This document shows positions 13,886 to 59,163 of a stretch of DNA of 64,000 nucleotides, in pieces; the stretch's first letter is position 1, and each line of letters starts with the position of its first letter. A program made the position numbers and the translations under genes. Source of the stretch: Escherichia phage Ecwhy_1. The notes under the pieces were generated by a model. It made no database searches, had not been told where the DNA came from, and saw only the letters and a list, made by a program, of their open reading frames with translations. Location: the sequence record MH791411.1. One strand, given 5' to 3'.

Positions 13886-13913
13886 ATTATATCACATTCT
13901 TTGCGTTTGTCAA
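13886..13913 (-). promoter_or_regulatory. Consensus sigma70-type (early) promoter of the clpA-like gene
   Basis: Minus strand reads TTGACA-aacgcaaagaatgtga-TATAAT (16-nt spacer, TGa extended -10), about 40 nt upstream of ATG 13847. Confidence 0.75.
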
Positions 13914-13918
13914 CAAGG

Positions 13919-13924
13919 TAAATA
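13919..13924 (+). promoter_or_regulatory. TAAATA late-promoter-like motif upstream of neck-position gene
   Basis: ggTAAATAaag lies 31 nt upstream of ATG 13956. Confidence 0.4.
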
Positions 13925-13955
13925 AAGATATACCCGATTTATTTTGGAGACAAAC

Positions 13956-15452
13956 ATGGCATATAGAATGTGGAAAAAAGGTAGAACCAATGATTACAAG
14001 TTCATTGACTCTGCCATAGCAGAACAATACAACATCGGTGGTGTTGACATGTGGCTTTATGCCTATGTCGGACCAAAACAAGTCGCTGATAACACTGATT
14101 TATCATACGGCGGTGATTATTATGGATCAGATAGTACCGTTGTGTCAAGCATTGGTGATTTAATTTTTGGTGACACTCCAAGTCGTAACTATAATCTCGA
14201 AGCTATCACCTTAAGTTGCGTCTACCAAGTCCAAGAAGCAACTCCTGACTTGAAAATCCCAGGATTGTTCTTCAACTTTAACACTATGGACATCACAATT
14301 CATTATAACACAATGATTCAGCGTTTGGGAAGAAAAATTATGCCAGGTGACGTAATCGAACTTCCTAACTTACGTGATTTTGATGTACTTGGTAAAGATT
14401 CTGGTTTAAACCGCTTCTATGTAGTACAAGATGGGTTTAGAACGTCAGAAGGTTACTCAGTTACATGGCAACATCACATTTACAAACTCCGTGTTAAACC
14501 TCTTACTGATTCACCAGAGTACTCTGACCTTCTAGGTAACAATAACTACCCTGATGACCCAGATGATCCAAACAACGGCAATGGTAATACTGATGATGGC
14601 TCTTCAGAGAACAGCAGCTATGGTAATGAAATGGATATTATGAACCGTATCATTATGCAAGCTGATGATGAAGTACCATACATTCATTTTACTAACGAAC
14701 ACTTGTTCGATGACAGACCAGATACTGTTGATTTGTCTAAGTATATGCTAAATGGATACGAATTACCAGAGGAACCAGCAAATAAAATGTATTTCCTCAA
14801 GAAAACTTACCCAGTACTGAAAGAACTATCTAATGATACATGGATTTCTGTAGAAGTCAAGCGTGGAACAATCTTTCCTCGCAAACCGATGGATGGTGAC
14901 TTCTTCTTTAAAGAAAACGAGGCTGATGTCACTGGCTTCTCATTGTATCAATACGATAAATCTGCCAAAAAGTGGCTAAATTGTGATGTTGAGTATACTA
15001 CAGAAAGCACACCACCACAAGGGGTTGATGATTTTTATATTGAATACAAAGAACCACACATTTATCAGTACTTAAATGGTAAATGGGGAGAACCAGAAGT
15101 AACTTACGTTAATGACCCATTCACTTCTAATAGTGTTTATGGAAATATCGATTCACAACAAGATTATCGTCCTAAGATTCCTCCAGCACGAGGTACAGTT
15201 CCTGAAGGTAATATGTTCCCAAGTGATGCAGTTGATGGTGATTACTACTATCGTACCGATTATACACCAGTAACCCTATGGGAATACAGTGCGTCCAAGA
15301 ATTCTTGGGTGATTTTCGATTACGGTGGTAGAAAACCGTGGGAAGGTGCAGATCTTGCTCTAACAGAATTTGTTAATAGCCCGAACCGTGTACCATTACA
15401 TGATGCAGTTAAACCTAATACAGCGTATCGTATACATAAGGATTCAGAATGA
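13956..15452 (+). CDS. Virion protein, putative neck protein (T4 gp14 position)
   Basis: Track start 13944 is TTG; ATG 13956 follows tttGGAGacaaac. Its stop overlaps the start of the gp15-like gene (ATGA at 15449-15452). Contains an Asp/Asn/Gly linker (PDDPDDPNNGNGNTDDGSSENSS). Function is inferred from position only. Confidence 0.55.
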   Translation: MAYRMWKKGRTNDYKFIDSAIAEQYNIGGVDMWLYAYVGPKQVADNTDLSYGGDYYGSDSTVVSSIGDLIFGDTPSRNYNLEAITLSCVYQVQEATPDLKIPGLFFNFNTMDITIHYNTMIQRLGRKIMPGDVIELPNLRDFDVLGKDSGLNRFYVVQDGFRTSEGYSVTWQHHIYKLRVKPLTDSPEYSDLLGNNNYPDDPDDPNNGNGNTDDGSSENSSYGNEMDIMNRIIMQADDEVPYIHFTNEHLFDDRPDTVDLSKYMLNGYELPEEPANKMYFLKKTYPVLKELSNDTWISVEVKRGTIFPRKPMDGDFFFKENEADVTGFSLYQYDKSAKKWLNCDVEYTTESTPPQGVDDFYIEYKEPHIYQYLNGKWGEPEVTYVNDPFTSNSVYGNIDSQQDYRPKIPPARGTVPEGNMFPSDAVDGDYYYRTDYTPVTLWEYSASKNSWVIFDYGGRKPWEGADLALTEFVNSPNRVPLHDAVKPNTAYRIHKDSE

Positions 15453-16792
15453 AAATAGATTATTATTATGATGGTCAATTTCGTCGAGTACTGAAACATC
15501 TTATCAGAGTGTTTGGTGAATTTCAAGTACAAAATGGTGTTGATGCTGACGGAAAACCAAAATATAAGAAAGTTCCTTGCCGCTATGCAGATATTTCACG
15601 TATGGCAGCAGCAATTATTAATGGTAACAGTGAGAACGTGCTTCCAACAGCACCAATCATGACCATTAGTGTAAACCAACTTAAACTAGATCGCAAGTCA
15701 GTTCGTTCAAACGCAAATGAAACATTAGTTATGGGGACTAACAAGTCCCCTGGAATTAACGAATATACTAAAGACTTAGATAAACAGTATAAAGTAACTC
15801 GTCATAACCCAGTACCTTGGACATTTACGTTTGATGTTAATATTTGGGTTACACAAACACAAACTAAAATGGAACTATTTGAGCAAATTTCAACATTGTT
15901 TGCTCCTAGTATTCAATTACAACTCTCCGAGAACCCACTGGATTGGACATCATTGAGTGATGTGGAGTTGATTGACTGTCAATTTACTACTCGTGGTTTC
16001 CCACAAGGAACCGATAGTGATTTGGATATAATGGTATTGACATTTGAAACCACAATTTGGTTCTCTTTGCCAGCTATTGTTGAGAAACCAAAACTTATCC
16101 AACAAATCACCACCAATATTAAAGGTGCTCGTGATGAACTTGATTTTGAAATTGGTAATTACTCGGATATCATTACTGATGTATTCACACCAAAGAACTT
16201 ATGTATTAAAGTTGATGAAATAACAAACTCTGAACTTAATATTCCAGATACTTACCAACTCACTCTTGTTAGTCAATCACTATCAGAAACATCACCAAAT
16301 GGTGGGATTTATTCATGGGAAAAATACCTTAAGTACTTGGACCCAGAATATGAAGACAAGACTGTAGGTATTAAATTCCAACAAGCTATAGAAGAGGATA
16401 ACCCACTAAAAGGACATATCTCTTCATTTGGGGAAGGGGCTGATTCTAACAAGATTGTAGTTCAGCTTGATAATAGTAATTATACTGTTGATTATACAAT
16501 ACATGGATTCATTAGTAAAGACTCTTTGTTATATAACGCACTACCTGAACAATATTATGTAAATAATAGCATACATAACATCATTTACAAAGAGACTGAA
16601 ATCCCAGCGAACTATTTGTTTAAAATTACCAATGATGGAGCAGAACTTATTGAGCCATCGCGAGTACACAACTATGTTTATAATATGGAAGATAGTGGAT
16701 ATTATAGATATAATGACAAATTCAAATGGCATAAGAGTATTATGTCAGTATATCGTCAGGGATATTGGAAAATAACTTTCACTGACAAATAA
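15449..16792 (+). CDS. Tail sheath stabiliser / tail completion protein (T4 gp15-like), C-terminally extended
   Basis: YYYDGQFRRVLKHLIRVFGEFQV and KYKKVPCRYA parallel recalled T4 gp15 FYNSSFRRYATLMGDLFSNIQI and KFIRVPITYA. The blocks HNPVPWTFTFDVNIW and MELFEQISTLFAPS parallel gp15 YNPSPIKMIYELSIF and FQIVEQILPYFQP. Confidence 0.7.
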   Translation: MKIDYYYDGQFRRVLKHLIRVFGEFQVQNGVDADGKPKYKKVPCRYADISRMAAAIINGNSENVLPTAPIMTISVNQLKLDRKSVRSNANETLVMGTNKSPGINEYTKDLDKQYKVTRHNPVPWTFTFDVNIWVTQTQTKMELFEQISTLFAPSIQLQLSENPLDWTSLSDVELIDCQFTTRGFPQGTDSDLDIMVLTFETTIWFSLPAIVEKPKLIQQITTNIKGARDELDFEIGNYSDIITDVFTPKNLCIKVDEITNSELNIPDTYQLTLVSQSLSETSPNGGIYSWEKYLKYLDPEYEDKTVGIKFQQAIEEDNPLKGHISSFGEGADSNKIVVQLDNSNYTVDYTIHGFISKDSLLYNALPEQYYVNNSIHNIIYKETEIPANYLFKITNDGAELIEPSRVHNYVYNMEDSGYYRYNDKFKWHKSIMSVYRQGYWKITFTDK

Positions 16793-16804
16793 GGAGGTGT
16801 TGTT

Positions 16805-17269
16805 ATGAATGAAGCAGTAGGTGCTATATTTTTATCTAAAAGTACTGGACACATGATGTTAAACTTGAGATCAGAAAGAAGTACGTATTCTAACAACTGG
16901 GCATTTGTTGGTGGGAAGCTTGAGTATAATGAAACTCCGTTACAGGGTCTTATGCGTGAGATTAAAGAAGAGCTAGGTGATTCTATTCCAACGATAATAG
17001 ATATTATACCATTTGATGTATTTTGTACGAAGAATGGTAAATTTAAATATTATTCATTTGTCATTGTAGTTGAAAATGAATTCGTACCTACTTTAAATCA
17101 TGAGAGTTCTGGTTATGCATGGGTTAAGATTGGCTCATGGCCCAAACCATTACATCCTGGTGCAAAAAACACATTACTCAACACAAATTTAATGAAGGAT
17201 TTCTATTCATTGTGGGAAAGTATACGACAAGGTACACAGTTTGTCAACAGCTTACCATATCGATATTAA
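16805..17269 (+). CDS. Nudix hydrolase
   Basis: Nudix box GGKLEYNETPLQGLMREIKEELG (GX5EX7REUXEEXGU). Strong RBS aaGGAGGtgttgttATG. Confidence 0.85.
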   Translation: MNEAVGAIFLSKSTGHMMLNLRSERSTYSNNWAFVGGKLEYNETPLQGLMREIKEELGDSIPTIIDIIPFDVFCTKNGKFKYYSFVIVVENEFVPTLNHESSGYAWVKIGSWPKPLHPGAKNTLLNTNLMKDFYSLWESIRQGTQFVNSLPYRY

Positions 17270-17270
17270 T

Positions 17271-17300
17271 AAAAAAAAGGAGCCAATGGCTCCTTTTTTC
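17271..17300. terminator. Bidirectional terminator between convergent Nudix and minus-strand cassette
   Basis: aaaaaaaa-ggagcc-aat-ggctcc-tttttt. Confidence 0.7.
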
Positions 17301-17303
17301 TTT

Positions 17304-18404
17304 TTATACCCCAATTAGTGGGATACCTGTTATATTAAGTAGAACCGATGCTTGAAGCTTAACTGACTCACCTGCCGAAAGGTTGTTTACTATACCATCG
17401 ACGCGGAACCCTAAGTTTTTATTAGAGTTAAGAGAGTTAACCACCCAGTTTTCGTAATCCGCTTTTGTAATACCATTCGGATTTGGGAGAGTTGGGTCAA
17501 CACCATTAATTACCATAGATACATCCCAATTAGGGCGACTACTTGTAATTACATCCTTGATTGATTCTAGTTGTGTTATGCGACGTGGGTCTGGAATCTG
17601 ACTTGCACCAATTGAACCAGGAACAAATGTACCTTGGTTATCAACATAGAACTGACCTTTAATGAAAAATGTTTTTGAATTATACGGAAGAGAAACAATT
17701 TCACCTGATGAATCACTAACTTCACGAATCATAATTTTCAATTCATAAAAATAGTTACTACCAAATTCAAACACACCAGTACCATTTGTAAATGTTGTCC
17801 AGTTATTTGAATCAACCTGTGAAGTACCACCCATATTGAAGTACGCTAATGGCTTAGTACTGTTACTTTGTGTAAATTCAATATATTTCTTACCTGTATC
17901 ATAGTTGATATCAAGTAGTGTGGAGTACTCTTTATTTTCTGGACGAGATGTTTGAATTTCACGCCATTCTTTATTTTTCATTAGGACACGAAGGGAATCA
18001 CCATTACTGGTAAGAACCATACGACCCATAATACTATTTTCACCATCTGGTACTGTGTTGAAAATTGAAATCATTGGGATAGATGCCCAGTCAGCTTCAG
18101 ATGCAGTATCTACTGGCTGACGAGCATTATCAACTAATGCAAGAAGTAGTTCGCCAGTGTTGCCAGTATTTCTGTACCAAATCTGACCATTAACGTTACC
18201 ACGAGGTGCAGTAGCTCCACTGAAGTTCTCAACCAAGTGGAGGAAGTTTTCGTTCCATGCTTGACCGTAACCAACTTTATTTCGACCTGCAAAGTTTAAC
18301 GGTACTGGGTTACTACCAGGTTGGTTTGGTCCTAATATTACGTTATTTGGAATGGTAGCATAAACGCTACCATTACTTCTATAAATTGTATAACTTACAC
18401 TCAT
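17304..18404 (-). CDS. Putative tail fibre / baseplate-associated structural protein
   Basis: 366-aa beta-rich ORF, last gene of a three-gene leftward cassette. The N-terminal block PLNFAGRNKVGYGQAWNENFLHLVENF resembles fibre attachment regions. No enzymatic motif. Confidence 0.5.
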   Translation of the reverse strand: MSVSYTIYRSNGSVYATIPNNVILGPNQPGSNPVPLNFAGRNKVGYGQAWNENFLHLVENFSGATAPRGNVNGQIWYRNTGNTGELLLALVDNARQPVDTASEADWASIPMISIFNTVPDGENSIMGRMVLTSNGDSLRVLMKNKEWREIQTSRPENKEYSTLLDINYDTGKKYIEFTQSNSTKPLAYFNMGGTSQVDSNNWTTFTNGTGVFEFGSNYFYELKIMIREVSDSSGEIVSLPYNSKTFFIKGQFYVDNQGTFVPGSIGASQIPDPRRITQLESIKDVITSSRPNWDVSMVINGVDPTLPNPNGITKADYENWVVNSLNSNKNLGFRVDGIVNNLSAGESVKLQASVLLNITGIPLIGV

Positions 18405-18416
18405 ATCATCACCTTA

Positions 18417-19025
18417 TTATTGTAGTTGGACACGAACTGTGTATTTGATTTGCAAAACACGGTTAGCACTTTTCTCAACTGGGTGAAAAATAATATGGGT
18501 AAGTGGAATACCGCTATCACCATTTGTATATAAACCCAATTCGTCAAATACATATGTCCCATCCATGCTAGTACCAGAGCTAACACCTTGGTCAGATGGC
18601 TCACCTAAACCTAATGTACAAATACAGACGATATCAGTGTAAGCTTGACCTGGAATGTGAACAGTTGTAATGTTGTTATATTGTGAATCAATACCAGCAG
18701 AGATACGTGGGTTGATTTTTTTCAGATAAGTCTGAGAATATAGACCACCGAAAGAAGTAACGCGTGGTTTCTTGTATGTGATACGACCAGTACTCAAAAC
18801 TACTGTTCCACCATTACCAAAACGCATCTCACTAATAGATCCAATAGGAATACCAGTACTATCTTGATTATAAGCCAACGCATTAGCAATAGCAGTACTC
18901 ATATTTTCAGGGTGAATTGCGTTTGATTTATCCAAAACGATTTTTTGGTTAGATGGATCAGTAACGTCAGTAATTAGTACATGACCCTTAACAAATAGTT
19001 TTGGTTGTTCTGTTTCTAATTTCAT
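18417..19025 (-). CDS. Hypothetical virion-associated protein
   Basis: 202-aa ORF tightly packed between neighbours (9-12 nt gaps), beta-rich composition, late-type context. Confidence 0.6.
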   Translation of the reverse strand: MKLETEQPKLFVKGHVLITDVTDPSNQKIVLDKSNAIHPENMSTAIANALAYNQDSTGIPIGSISEMRFGNGGTVVLSTGRITYKKPRVTSFGGLYSQTYLKKINPRISAGIDSQYNNITTVHIPGQAYTDIVCICTLGLGEPSDQGVSSGTSMDGTYVFDELGLYTNGDSGIPLTHIIFHPVEKSANRVLQIKYTVRVQLQ

Positions 19026-19034
19026 TTCTAATCC

Positions 19035-19532
19035 TTAGTAGTTAATTAAAATTTGTTCTAACTTACCAGCTAAACTTTTTTGTACATCAGATGGATACTT
19101 GCTAATGTAATCACGGTCAATACCAACTTTCAGATAGGTAAAGTTTCCGGTTAAGGTTTCAGCGAATGTACCAGTTGTACCTTGTTCTCTAATAAGGTCA
19201 CCACCATTTGGGTTAAGAATGACATTATCAGTAAATTCAAGATAGAAGTTGCAGCTTTCGGTAAATTTAATTGGGAACCAATCATCGTCAGATGGATTAC
19301 TTGCCAGTGTAGCGAGTACGTAAATTCTACCAATGAAGTTACGTAGGGTAAAGGATATTGTATGTAATCCTGTAGTACTACCATAATAGCCGCCACTAGC
19401 TAATGGTAATGTTTGTTCGTTCCAATGATAATCTAAGTTAGCAGGATACCAGCTATCTGATTCAGGAAATTCTTGCCATGAACCATCTTTAGTTTTTCTT
19501 TTGAAGAGGAAGTCTTTTGATCTTAATGCCAT
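19035..19532 (-). CDS. Hypothetical virion-associated protein
   Basis: 165-aa ORF, first gene of the leftward cassette, with a TAAATA motif 31 nt upstream. Confidence 0.6.
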   Translation of the reverse strand: MALRSKDFLFKRKTKDGSWQEFPESDSWYPANLDYHWNEQTLPLASGGYYGSTTGLHTISFTLRNFIGRIYVLATLASNPSDDDWFPIKFTESCNFYLEFTDNVILNPNGGDLIREQGTTGTFAETLTGNFTYLKVGIDRDYISKYPSDVQKSLAGKLEQILINY

Positions 19533-19563
19533 TGTTAAGCCCTTTTAGTAGTGAACTTTCATT

Positions 19564-19569
19564 TATTTA
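19564..19569 (-). promoter_or_regulatory. TAAATA late-promoter-like motif (leftward cassette)
   Basis: Minus strand attaaTAAATAaatg lies 31 nt upstream of ATG 19532. Divergent with the motif at 19600-19605. Confidence 0.4.
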
Positions 19570-19599
19570 TTAATGGCAACGAAATGTATTTTGTACTGA

Positions 19600-19605
19600 T
19601 AAATA
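19600..19605 (+). promoter_or_regulatory. TAAATA late-promoter-like motif (fibre operon)
   Basis: ctgaTAAATAttgg lies 36 nt upstream of ATG 19642. Confidence 0.4.
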
Positions 19606-57349: not shown

Positions 57350-57829
57350 TTATTTTAGAATGTATAAGTGTTTTTCTGCATTAACCAGTCTGTGGTCAAT
57401 GATTTCTTTGATAACGTTCCAGTTACCACCGCCTAAATCGGCTCCAATTTTCGGGAAGTGTACATGGATCTCTTGTGGTTCATTTTTAATGAATTCATTC
57501 ATCGAGTTAAATGCAAGGTCAATCGCATCATAACTTACATACTTCTTACCATCATTACCATAATACTCTTGTGTAATGCAGTTTGCAATAATTAAGTTAT
57601 TATTTGGTGCTGCATAGACAACTTCACCCAATTTCAAACCATTCTGATTGGTATAACGTGTATGATACACATCATATGCCAATTGGTGACGCTTTCTTAA
57701 TTCTTTTGCAAAACCAGAACCCATCTTACCCTGAGCGTTACAACCATGAGCGATAATATGTAATGCAGTTTGATCAGTAGTAACAGTACTGAATAAATCA
57801 AACAGATTACCACAATGTTCATGTATCAT
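57350..57829 (-). CDS. Macro-domain protein (ADP-ribose / Appr-1''-p binding or hydrolase)
   Basis: LHIIAHGCNAQGKMGSGFAKELRKRH is the N-terminal macro signature (h.NC.G.MG.GIA). 159 aa is a single macro-domain size. RBS cGGAGaatataATG. Confidence 0.8.
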   Translation of the reverse strand: MIHEHCGNLFDLFSTVTTDQTALHIIAHGCNAQGKMGSGFAKELRKRHQLAYDVYHTRYTNQNGLKLGEVVYAAPNNNLIIANCITQEYYGNDGKKYVSYDAIDLAFNSMNEFIKNEPQEIHVHFPKIGADLGGGNWNVIKEIIDHRLVNAEKHLYILK

Positions 57830-58168: not shown

Positions 58169-58411
58169 TTATTTAGGGTTGCTCGAAACCTCTACTGAAG
58201 CGATGAATGCCAAAATATCATCTTTACTGAAAGCTTCAATAATATAAGCAACCGCTTTATCGTACTGTTCTTTCTTAGTAGTGTATTCTTTCATTTTGTG
58301 AATTTTACGTTGTGCTTTAACTTTTGCAGCTTCCATATCAGGCATTTTAAATTCAACACCCAATGTGTCAGCTAAATGTTTTGCACGAGATGATACTTTA
58401 TCAATATTCAT
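58169..58411 (-). CDS. Hypothetical protein (80 aa)
   Basis: Start overlaps the glutaredoxin stop (TAATG-type junction). Helical, Lys-rich. Confidence 0.55.
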   Translation of the reverse strand: MNIDKVSSRAKHLADTLGVEFKMPDMEAAKVKAQRKIHKMKEYTTKKEQYDKAVAYIIEAFSKDDILAFIASVEVSSNPK

Positions 58412-58659
58412 TAATTCCAGCGACCTTCTTTAAGACCTTCAACGAAACCAGTACAGCCACCTGGAACGTAAACATCGTTTACGAAAATTTGTGGAACCTG
58501 TCGTACTGGCTCACCACATAGTTCAGATAGTTTAGCACCATCAATACCAGCGGTAACAATATCGATAAACTCCATATCAAATTTGTTATTTTCACATACT
58601 GCTTTAGCAGTGTCGCAGAATTTACAACCAGTAGTGCGACCATAAATTTTAACTTTCAT
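58411..58659 (-). CDS. Glutaredoxin (Grx1 / T4 NrdC-like)
   Basis: KIYGRTTGCKFCDTAK (CxxC) and VPQIFVNDVYVPGG parallel E. coli Grx1 FGRSGCPYCVRAK and VPQIFIDQQHIGG (recalled). Confidence 0.8.
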   Translation of the reverse strand: MKVKIYGRTTGCKFCDTAKAVCENNKFDMEFIDIVTAGIDGAKLSELCGEPVRQVPQIFVNDVYVPGGCTGFVEGLKEGRWN

Positions 58660-59062
58660 TTCTTTTCCCTTTATTTCGTTGAAACATTGTAACAGCCTTT
58701 ATTATACTGTTACACATTCGTTCAGTCAAATACTTTTGACAATCTAGTACATCAATGTACATGAACTTATCCAATTCTGGGTGACTTCTACCATATCTGT
58801 TTGTGTAAGTACTTTTACACTCCAACTCTTCTGGTATAGGCTTATCTTTGGCTGTATAGAAAAATAAAACTAAACGTTTCCCCTTTCTATACGATACATC
58901 ACCAAGAAACAGAAGATCATCTTCATCGATTTCATATCCTGTCTCTTCGTAGCATTCACGTACAGCAGCCTCTTTAAATGTTTCTGTACCTTCAGTTTTA
59001 CCTTTAGGTAAGTCCCAGTGATTCTGTCCGTGTTGTATGCCCGATAAGTATCTGACCATCAC
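58649..59062 (-). CDS. Nudix hydrolase (second copy in window)
   Basis: Nudix box PKGKTEGTETFKEAAVRECYEETGYEI. GTG/ATG start with no SD, very close to an extended -10 element. Confidence 0.8.
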   Translation of the reverse strand: MMVRYLSGIQHGQNHWDLPKGKTEGTETFKEAAVRECYEETGYEIDEDDLLFLGDVSYRKGKRLVLFFYTAKDKPIPEELECKSTYTNRYGRSHPELDKFMYIDVLDCQKYLTERMCNSIIKAVTMFQRNKGKRNES

Positions 59063-59070
59063 GATAAAAT

Positions 59071-59079
59071 ATTATACCA
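59071..59079 (-). promoter_or_regulatory. Extended -10 promoter (TGgTATAAT) immediately upstream of Nudix 2
   Basis: Minus strand gctgTGgTATAATattttatcGTGATG. The -10 ends only 8-11 nt from the candidate start codons, so the mRNA may be leaderless or short-leadered. Confidence 0.35.
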
Positions 59080-59135
59080 CAGCTATAACGCATAATCTTA
59101 TCTCTTTATCATCAAGTGATGTTCAGATACTAGTA

Positions 59136-59163
59136 ATTATATCAGAAGATGTTAACTTGTCCC
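59136..59163 (-). promoter_or_regulatory. sigma70-type promoter downstream of cca
   Basis: Minus strand GGGACA-agttaacatcttctga-TATAAT (16-nt spacer, TGa extended -10). Same -35 variant as promoter 40125-40152. Confidence 0.5.

Follow-up and report, generated by a model that had tools for sequence, protein, structure and literature searches.

Why does a jumbo phage close a tail-gene operon with a gene for a Nudix hydrolase, and would that enzyme do a different job from a second one encoded elsewhere in the same genome? We addressed this question in a 64,000-nucleotide stretch of Escherichia phage Ecwhy_1 (MH791411.1; hereafter the window), which carries the open reading frame (ORF) 16805-17269 on the plus strand, here called Nudix-1, and a NudE.1-like gene at 59093-58649 on the minus strand, here called Nudix-2. 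By nucleotide identity, the window belongs to a jumbo coliphage of the 121Q/RaK2 type, within the genus Asteriusvirus of the RaK2-like supergroup: its region 13900-19600 is 99.0-99.7% identical to the Escherichia jumbo phages vB_Ec-M-J, TH47, EC.P1, fEgEco12 and Turkey3, and ~84% identical to 121Q, PBECO4, G17 and phAPEC6. The CMSTMSU record was excluded from the comparisons because it has indels throughout. Two Nudix genes of different subfamilies are ordinary in such a genome. Jumbo phages commonly have multiple Nudix genes, and both of these are known and annotated; Nudix-1 is already labelled 'MutT-like', 'MutT/NUDIX hydrolase', 'nudix hydrolase' or 'nudG' in related records, Nudix-2 is called NudE in the annotations of 121Q and RaK2, and dozens of RaK2/121Q-type genomes carry both genes annotated as Nudix hydrolases. 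An earlier note on this DNA overlooked these public annotations and also a frameshift in Nudix-2. That conserved frameshift, which lies outside 16805-17269, is the sole notable result of the analysis. Our best joint explanation, to which we give about an even chance, is that this Asteriusvirus-type coliphage would make two active Nudix pyrophosphohydrolases, each with a role of its own: Nudix-1 as a late enzyme of nucleoside triphosphates and Nudix-2 as a frameshifted enzyme of the NudE.1 type.

A six-frame translation of the window holds exactly two strict Nudix boxes (GX5EX7REUXEEXGU), one in each gene, which bears out the earlier count of two. Nudix-1 (154 amino acids (aa), ATG start; orthologues 121Q gp578, RaK2 gp066, CBB_232 and phAPEC6 gp249) has the box GKLEYNETPLQGLMREIKEELG at 16913-16978. 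With this box, the alpha/beta/alpha Nudix fold and a Pfam NUDIX (PF00293) score of 56.7 bits (cut-off 21.1), it is the canonical Nudix-box protein that the earlier note had described. The box of Nudix-2 lies at 58937-59002 on the minus strand, and its Pfam NUDIX score is 45.8 bits. The two proteins are 20% identical in a profile-profile alignment; BLASTP matches them only around the box, and they differ in the residues downstream of it. A PADLOC scan was uninformative, as both proteins match only the generic Nudix candidate model PDC-S07. Profile searches place them in different subfamilies, Nudix-1 in phrog_1198 and Nudix-2 in phrog_1185 (1.1e-45), the latter being the PHROG of T4 NudE. The earlier note had suggested distinct substrates and had offered, as a refutation, the finding of one shared subfamily with identical specificity residues. 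Since the subfamilies differ, that refutation does not apply, and distinct substrates remain a supported idea.

By profile comparison, Nudix-2 (121Q gp540) is a homologue of T4 NudE.1. Its hhalign match to T4 NudE has a probability of 99.5% with 33% identity over 118 columns, including the C-terminal CxSxFxNxxGxxxPExDxF, and an invariant tyrosine 15 residues past the box in the Nudix-2 family aligns with the T4 NudE tyrosine at +16. T4 NudE.1 (gene e.1) hydrolyses ADP-ribose, diadenosine triphosphate (Ap3A), flavin adenine dinucleotide (FAD) and nicotinamide adenine dinucleotide (NAD), and it decaps NAD-RNA in vitro and is inactive on 5'-triphosphate RNA (PPP-RNA). Nudix-1 does not belong to the T4 NudE.1 family; its hhalign match to T4 NudE (E 7e-8) covers the N-terminal part only. 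It is nearest to MutT, NudI and NudG by profile and fold, with NudI as the top fold match, and this placement beside a NudE.1 homologue supports distinct substrates for the two enzymes.

No cut-off was passed or approached when Nudix-1 was compared with the curated NCBIfam equivalog models. It scores 34.4 against 97.9 and 35.7 against 148 for the MutT 8-oxo-dGTP diphosphatase models TIGR00586 and NF008044, over residues 4-61 only, and 32.5 bits against 95 for the NudI model NF012016. In an hhalign comparison with Escherichia coli MutT, whose sequence was verified against 1MUT, the alignment is confined to MutT residues 5-59 and ends just past the box. MutT recognises 8-oxoguanine through Asn119. 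In an alignment made by eye only, the near-invariant alanine of LHPGAK in Nudix-1 lies opposite this residue (FPPAN context). Other subfamilies can be told by residues downstream of the box. ADP-ribose pyrophosphatases (ADPRases) have a proline 15-16 residues past it, and no member of the Nudix-1 or the Nudix-2 family has a proline at +15/+16. Diadenosine polyphosphate (ApnA) hydrolases have a tyrosine 16-18 residues past the box; neither this tyrosine nor the NuCoA motif was found downstream of the box in the Nudix-1 family. NudC is marked by an SQPWPFPxS array (Dunn et al. 1999), which is present in 0/30 Nudix-1 and 0/27 Nudix-2 family members. The Nudix box itself is kept in 30/30 members of the Nudix-1 family, together with two further invariant motifs, EFxPxLNxExxGYxW and PLHPGAK, and the protein has an extra C-terminal helix and tail relative to NudI, MutT and NudG. 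On these profile data, Nudix-1 is a phage-specific clade closest to the nucleoside-triphosphate branch, and it is not demonstrably a MutT, NudI, NudG or RppH.

From this position, Nudix-1 would most likely split (deoxy)nucleoside triphosphates ((d)NTPs) into a monophosphate and pyrophosphate, and would thereby sanitise or rebalance the nucleotide pool during replication and packaging of an AT-rich genome. Because Nudix-1 falls below every curated equivalog threshold, we infer the sanitation role rather than assign it. The reading would fit a phage genome of 34-40% GC that replicates in an E. coli host of ~51% GC, and would agree with the presence of deaminase and thymidylate-synthase genes in related phages.

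The surroundings of Nudix-1 are consistent with late co-transcription. The gene is preceded by a T4 gp15-like tail sheath stabiliser/completion gene (15449-16792, plus strand; Pfam T4-gp15_tss 4.8e-22, phrog_11196), whose orthologues have been detected in phAPEC6, PA5oct and CBB virions. The junction between the two genes is 12 nucleotides (nt) long and is kept in 121Q, RaK2, CBB and Vibrio phage 2.275.O. Here the gp15-like TAA stop (16790-16792) adjoins the Shine-Dalgarno sequence GGAGG (16793-16797, plus strand), which stands 7 nt before the Nudix-1 ATG and which the earlier note had called very strong; this arrangement leaves no space for a promoter or a terminator between the genes. The first gene of the unit (13956-15452, plus strand) encodes a 498-aa virion structural protein (phrog_11591 at 1e-258; orthologues 121Q gp580 and CBB_234), and its start was set by fEgEco12 g326 and 121Q gp580. 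It has no Pfam match, and its only PHROG match reads 'virion structural protein'; of the 'neck/sheath-stabiliser operon' proposed earlier, the sheath stabiliser is thus confirmed and the 'neck' label is not. Its phAPEC6 orthologue, gp247, is absent from the phAPEC6 virion proteome, and CBB_234 was detected with 12 peptides. At the other end, a predicted bidirectional intrinsic terminator with a 12-pair stem and a T-run (17273-17299) lies directly 3' of the Nudix-1 stop. It would also serve the convergent structural gene 17304-18404, and its hairpin is kept in 121Q and RaK2.

Scans for sigma70 promoters and terminators were overall at chance level, and the only sites retained were those that are conserved in relatives. 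Of the T4 late promoter TATAAATA, the window has 0 copies against 7 expected; as it was unusable there, the late-promoter search was made with the shorter motif TAAATA/ATAAATA. A TAAATA motif stands ~35 nt 5' of 13956; 121Q, RaK2, CBB, Vibrio phage 2.275.O and PA5oct all have it in the corresponding position despite diverged surroundings, so that the element upstream of the Nudix-1 operon is conserved across six genera. Exact ATAAATA is depleted in the window (10 observed against 25 expected), and several of its copies lie 5' of structural genes; TAAATA/ATAAATA sites are found at 13915-13925, 19564-19605, 50629-50635, 51466-51472 and 54532-54538. For RaK2-like phages, the authors of the CBB study put forward ATAAATA as a late promoter, and on motif conservation TAAATA/ATAAATA probably is the late promoter of this group. 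The proposal that Nudix-1 is the last gene of a late structural unit thus fits the short junction, the terminator and the TAAATA motif, with timing read from motifs only. The papers on fEgEco12, Sharanji and PA5oct mention neither the timing of expression nor the Nudix genes or a dUTPase. Nudix-1 would then be a soluble, non-virion enzyme of the MutT/NudI/NudG branch whose gene, lacking a separate promoter, shares the late-type promoter and the transcript of the gp15-like sheath stabiliser.

Close homologues of Nudix-1 (at least 41% identity) number ~80, and all are phage or metagenomic; beyond them there is a gap, after which come bacterial 133-aa MutT/NUDIX_4 proteins at E ~1e-8. The gene is present across the RaK2-like supergroup, in Asteriusvirus, Alcyoneusvirus, Eneladusvirus, CBB, GAP32, the Yersinia, Salmonella and Xanthomonas relatives, Vibrio phage 2.275.O and PA5oct, and SCTP-2, phiRSL1 and BcepSauron have more distant copies. 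In RaK2, CBB, the Vibrio phage and PA5oct, the gene lies directly 3' of the gp15-like gene. In metagenomic phages whose Nudix-1 is 49% identical, an inserted block of small genes separates the two by ~2.3 kb, and in phiRSL1 and BcepSauron the homologue stands amid genes for deaminase, NAD salvage, topoisomerase and RNA polymerase. Compared with 121Q, Nudix-1 shows ~6.5 non-synonymous differences at a synonymous divergence (dS) of 1.09, a value at which synonymous sites are near saturation. The ratio of non-synonymous to synonymous divergence (dN/dS) is 0.016, and that of the neighbouring structural genes is three times higher. By distribution and substitution pattern, Nudix-1 is a core, strongly constrained gene of the RaK2/121Q/CBB/PA5oct supergroup, throughout which it follows gp15.

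Position in a structural operon raises the possibility that Nudix-1 is packaged and injected with the DNA, so as to destroy NAD- or ADP-ribose-derived immune signals or to act on host nucleotides as the next infection begins. The products of phage Nudix, Macro and NADAR genes located in morphogenesis regions have been proposed, in general, to be packaged (Iyer et al. 2022, PMC9503650), and the late-type promoter motif of the Nudix-1 operon agrees with such a role. Three independent virion proteomes lack the protein, though both adjacent gene products were found. The phAPEC6 proteome contains gp248, gp250c, gp251c and gp253 and not gp249 (Nudix-1); the CBB list contains CBB_230, 231, 233 and 234 (CBB_231, 233 and 234 with 12 peptides each) and not CBB_232; and the PA5oct record places the mark 'ESI-MS/MS' on the sheath stabiliser and its neighbours and none on the Nudix-1 gene. 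As far as these published proteomes show, Nudix-1 is a non-virion protein, with a low copy number possible. The metabolic, non-structural contexts of its distant homologues and its lack of the ADPRase marker proline also speak against packaging, which we consider very improbable. Less improbable, and still unlikely, is that Nudix-1 works on RNA 5' ends, as an RppH/BdRppH-type pyrophosphohydrolase or a decapping enzyme; a late enzyme of this kind could turn 5'-triphosphate or capped transcripts into 5'-monophosphate RNAs, and host or early phage mRNAs would then decay faster through RNase E. Its BdRppH match spans residues 8-59 only, around the box, and its scores against the RppH models (NF001936 and related) are far under the cut-off (25.3 against 118; Nudix-2, 24 against 241). 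MutT and NudI outrank RppH-type matches by both profile and fold, and the near-neutral protein (isoelectric point 6.8, K+R = D+E) has no obvious basic RNA-binding surface. An action on ADP-X dinucleotides (NAD(H), ADP-ribose, ApnA or FAD) like that of T4 NudE.1 would overlap with Nudix-2, and might compensate for poor translation of that frameshifted gene. This appears distinctly improbable, given the absent ADPRase, NudC and ApnA markers and an hhalign match to T4 NudE that is weak beside that of Nudix-2 (8e-23). Furthermore, all relatives outside Asteriusvirus hold Nudix-1 together with an intact Nudix-2, which argues against redundancy. The (d)NTP role remains our preferred reading of Nudix-1.

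The second gene does not have the structure under which it has been listed. The earlier note placed it at 58649-59062; the gene is real, and those coordinates describe an artefactually truncated ORF, as the start lies at 59093. The listed ORF (GTG 59062 or ATG 59059 to 58649) is N-terminally short compared with its homologues, and this 132-136-aa form is the one in all public annotations. On the minus strand, codons 1-21 run in frame 0 from ATG 59093 (59031-59093) and encode MRYSCGIIFYRDGQILIGHTT, the consensus N-terminus of intact homologues. Frame 0 then runs into CGG ACA GAA ... TAA. A putative +1 recoding site, ACA ACA C GGA (59027-59036, minus strand), in which the 0-frame codon is CGG, would join it to the +1-frame part (58649-59029, minus strand; 126 codons and a stop), which holds the Nudix box. 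The continuation CAT ACA ACA [C] GGA CAG AAT CAC TGG reads HTT-GQNHW; the joined protein would have 147 aa, and its predicted junction tryptic peptide is DGQILIGHTTGQNHWDLPK.

Several observations point to selection on the joined product. The extra base is found in the identical context ACA ACA CGG ACA G in five diverged Asteriusvirus lineages (the window, 121Q, JNE01, A4 and UE-S1), and Nudix-2 is a single ORF in EJP2, pEa47, 7t3 and RaK2. When the joined protein was used as a tblastn query, the matches in 34 Asteriusvirus records began only at residue 13-22, and EJP2 and all other relatives among the matches listed aligned from residue 1. The selected frame switches at the site: among variable codons upstream of it, synonymous and changing codons stand at 5:1 in frame 0 against 1:6 in the other two frames, the annotated one included, and downstream at 56:18 in the +1 frame against 4:72 in the others. 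The 0-frame codon is not otherwise used. In the 34 ORFs of the window that are 150 aa or longer, CGG makes up 0/579 arginine codons and 0/18,007 codons overall, AGG is used three times, and the only conserved in-frame CGG found is the one at the shift site. CGG is also rare in E. coli, and a search for tRNA genes in the window found none. Taken together, the conserved site, the single-ORF homologues, the switch of selected frame and the unused 0-frame codon match the pattern expected of a +1 shift at a 'hungry' codon. An in-frame N-terminal deletion of 11 residues, considered as another account of the gene, was dropped after the upstream frame had been read. The 10-mer ACAACACGGA has a second exact copy in the window, at 51336-51345 on the plus strand (2 found against 0.15 expected). 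This copy was rejected as a recoding site; it lies antisense in a tail-tube gene and is probably there by chance.

We regard genuine +1 recoding in Nudix-2, judged from these substitution and codon patterns, as evenly balanced between true and false. Three points weigh against it: the P-site tRNA-Thr would be unable to re-pair in the +1 frame; no stimulator, including a Shine-Dalgarno-like element, was seen at the shift site; and the case is one of sequence, not of protein. A search for Nudix/NudE frameshifts in phages within the literature library used here found nothing relevant. The competing account dispenses with recoding: Nudix-2 would be either translated in N-terminally truncated form from ATG 59059, possibly with a 29-aa peptide made separately, or else a pseudogene in decay. 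The missing slippery codon and stimulator suit this account, as does the uniform public annotation, and AlphaFold still folds the truncated protein with a predicted local distance difference test (pLDDT) score of 90.7. Such a protein would nevertheless miss a core beta-strand. Moreover, no Shine-Dalgarno site precedes ATG 59059; ATG 59093, by contrast, retains the AAGAGA context that it shares with the intact genes, and the synonymous substitutions in frame 0 upstream of the shift show that the annotated N-terminus is not the selected one. Across lineages, the part downstream of the shift has a dN/dS of 0.094 at a dS of 0.6, and is therefore not a pseudogene. We consider truncation or decay doubtful, if still a serious contender. 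If recoding is the right reading, full-length Nudix-2 would be made only when the ribosome moves into the +1 frame at CGG, a codon otherwise unused by the phage. We would bet neither for nor against the further proposal that this conserved, unannotated frameshift of the main Asteriusvirus clade makes the yield of Nudix-2 depend on one rare tRNA-Arg and so renders it a sensor of the host's translational and tRNA state.

Nudix-2 also differs from Nudix-1 in its control elements. A putative sigma70-like extended -10 promoter, GGGACA-N16-TGATATAAT, lies upstream of it at 59136-59163 on the minus strand. Across relatives the spacer is N16/17 and a conserved GTATCTGA follows TGATATAAT; the motif is kept across Asteriusvirus lineages and 7t3, and is recognisable but partial in pEa47, EJP2 and RaK2. 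The pairing of a TAAATA motif at the Nudix-1 operon with a sigma70-like element at Nudix-2 lends motif-level support to the earlier suggestion that the two genes are differently regulated. Nudix-2 would be the counterpart of T4 NudE.1, a hydrolase of ADP-X, NAD or NAD caps expressed from its own sigma70-type promoter. It belongs to a co-oriented cluster of genes for a lysozyme, an HPF-like factor, a CCA-adding enzyme, Nudix-2, a glutaredoxin and a macro domain, just upstream of the neck, sheath and tube genes. The glutaredoxin gene (58411-58659, minus strand) overlaps the end of Nudix-2 by 11 nt. Nudix-glutaredoxin fusions of 225-227 aa occur in EJP2 (214-891) and in six metagenomic clusters (P0099, P0102, P0107, P0108, P0110 and P0115), an arrangement that suggests a functional link between the two activities. 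The Macro (Appr-1-p processing) domain gene (57350-57829, minus strand) is so named from the annotation of 121Q gp544; it evolves far faster than the genes around it, with a dN/dS against 121Q of 0.30, and the values for the Nudix, glutaredoxin and CCA-enzyme genes are 0.09-0.10.

The observation of two Nudix genes by itself adds little. What the analysis adds is a clean assignment, to one NudE.1 orthologue and one phage-specific clade of the MutT/NudI branch, together with a gene-model correction that applies to the NudE.1-type gene of 34 or more deposited genomes and a candidate for a rare type of phage recoding. If the shift is real, the proposed sensor would sit inside a cluster of tRNA- and ribosome-related genes (CCA-adding enzyme, peptidyl-tRNA hydrolase and HPF-like factor). 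Nudix-1, which is tied to the gp15 operon across several genera, exceptionally constrained and non-virion, is a worthwhile target for enzymology.

Each part of this picture has a known counterpart from which it departs. Nudix-1 differs from E. coli NudI (YfaO), MutT and NudG in its sub-cut-off scores, its own invariant motifs and its C-terminal additions. Its position inside a tail-gene operon of a large myovirus resembles the arrangement discussed by Iyer et al. 2022 (PMC9503650), but that proposal mainly concerns NudE-like and NadM-like clades, and Nudix-1 is in neither. Nudix-2 shares with T4 NudE.1 the PHROG family, the C-terminal half and a place in a lysozyme-gene cluster near structural genes; it differs in that the Asteriusvirus gene is split by the +1 frameshift and is followed by a glutaredoxin gene, which is fused to it in some relatives. 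Programmed +1 frameshifts at hungry codons operate in E. coli prfB (CUU-UGA-C), in yeast Ty1/Ty3 and in structural genes of Listeria phage PSA. Nudix-2 departs from these systems in being an accessory enzyme rather than a release factor or structural protein, known here from its sequence alone, and, with neither a stimulator nor re-pairing, it would need out-of-frame A-site binding like that of Ty3. What it has in common with them is a pair of overlapping ORFs that join to the product of a single-ORF homologue, a slow 0-frame codon at the junction and a site that is fully conserved.
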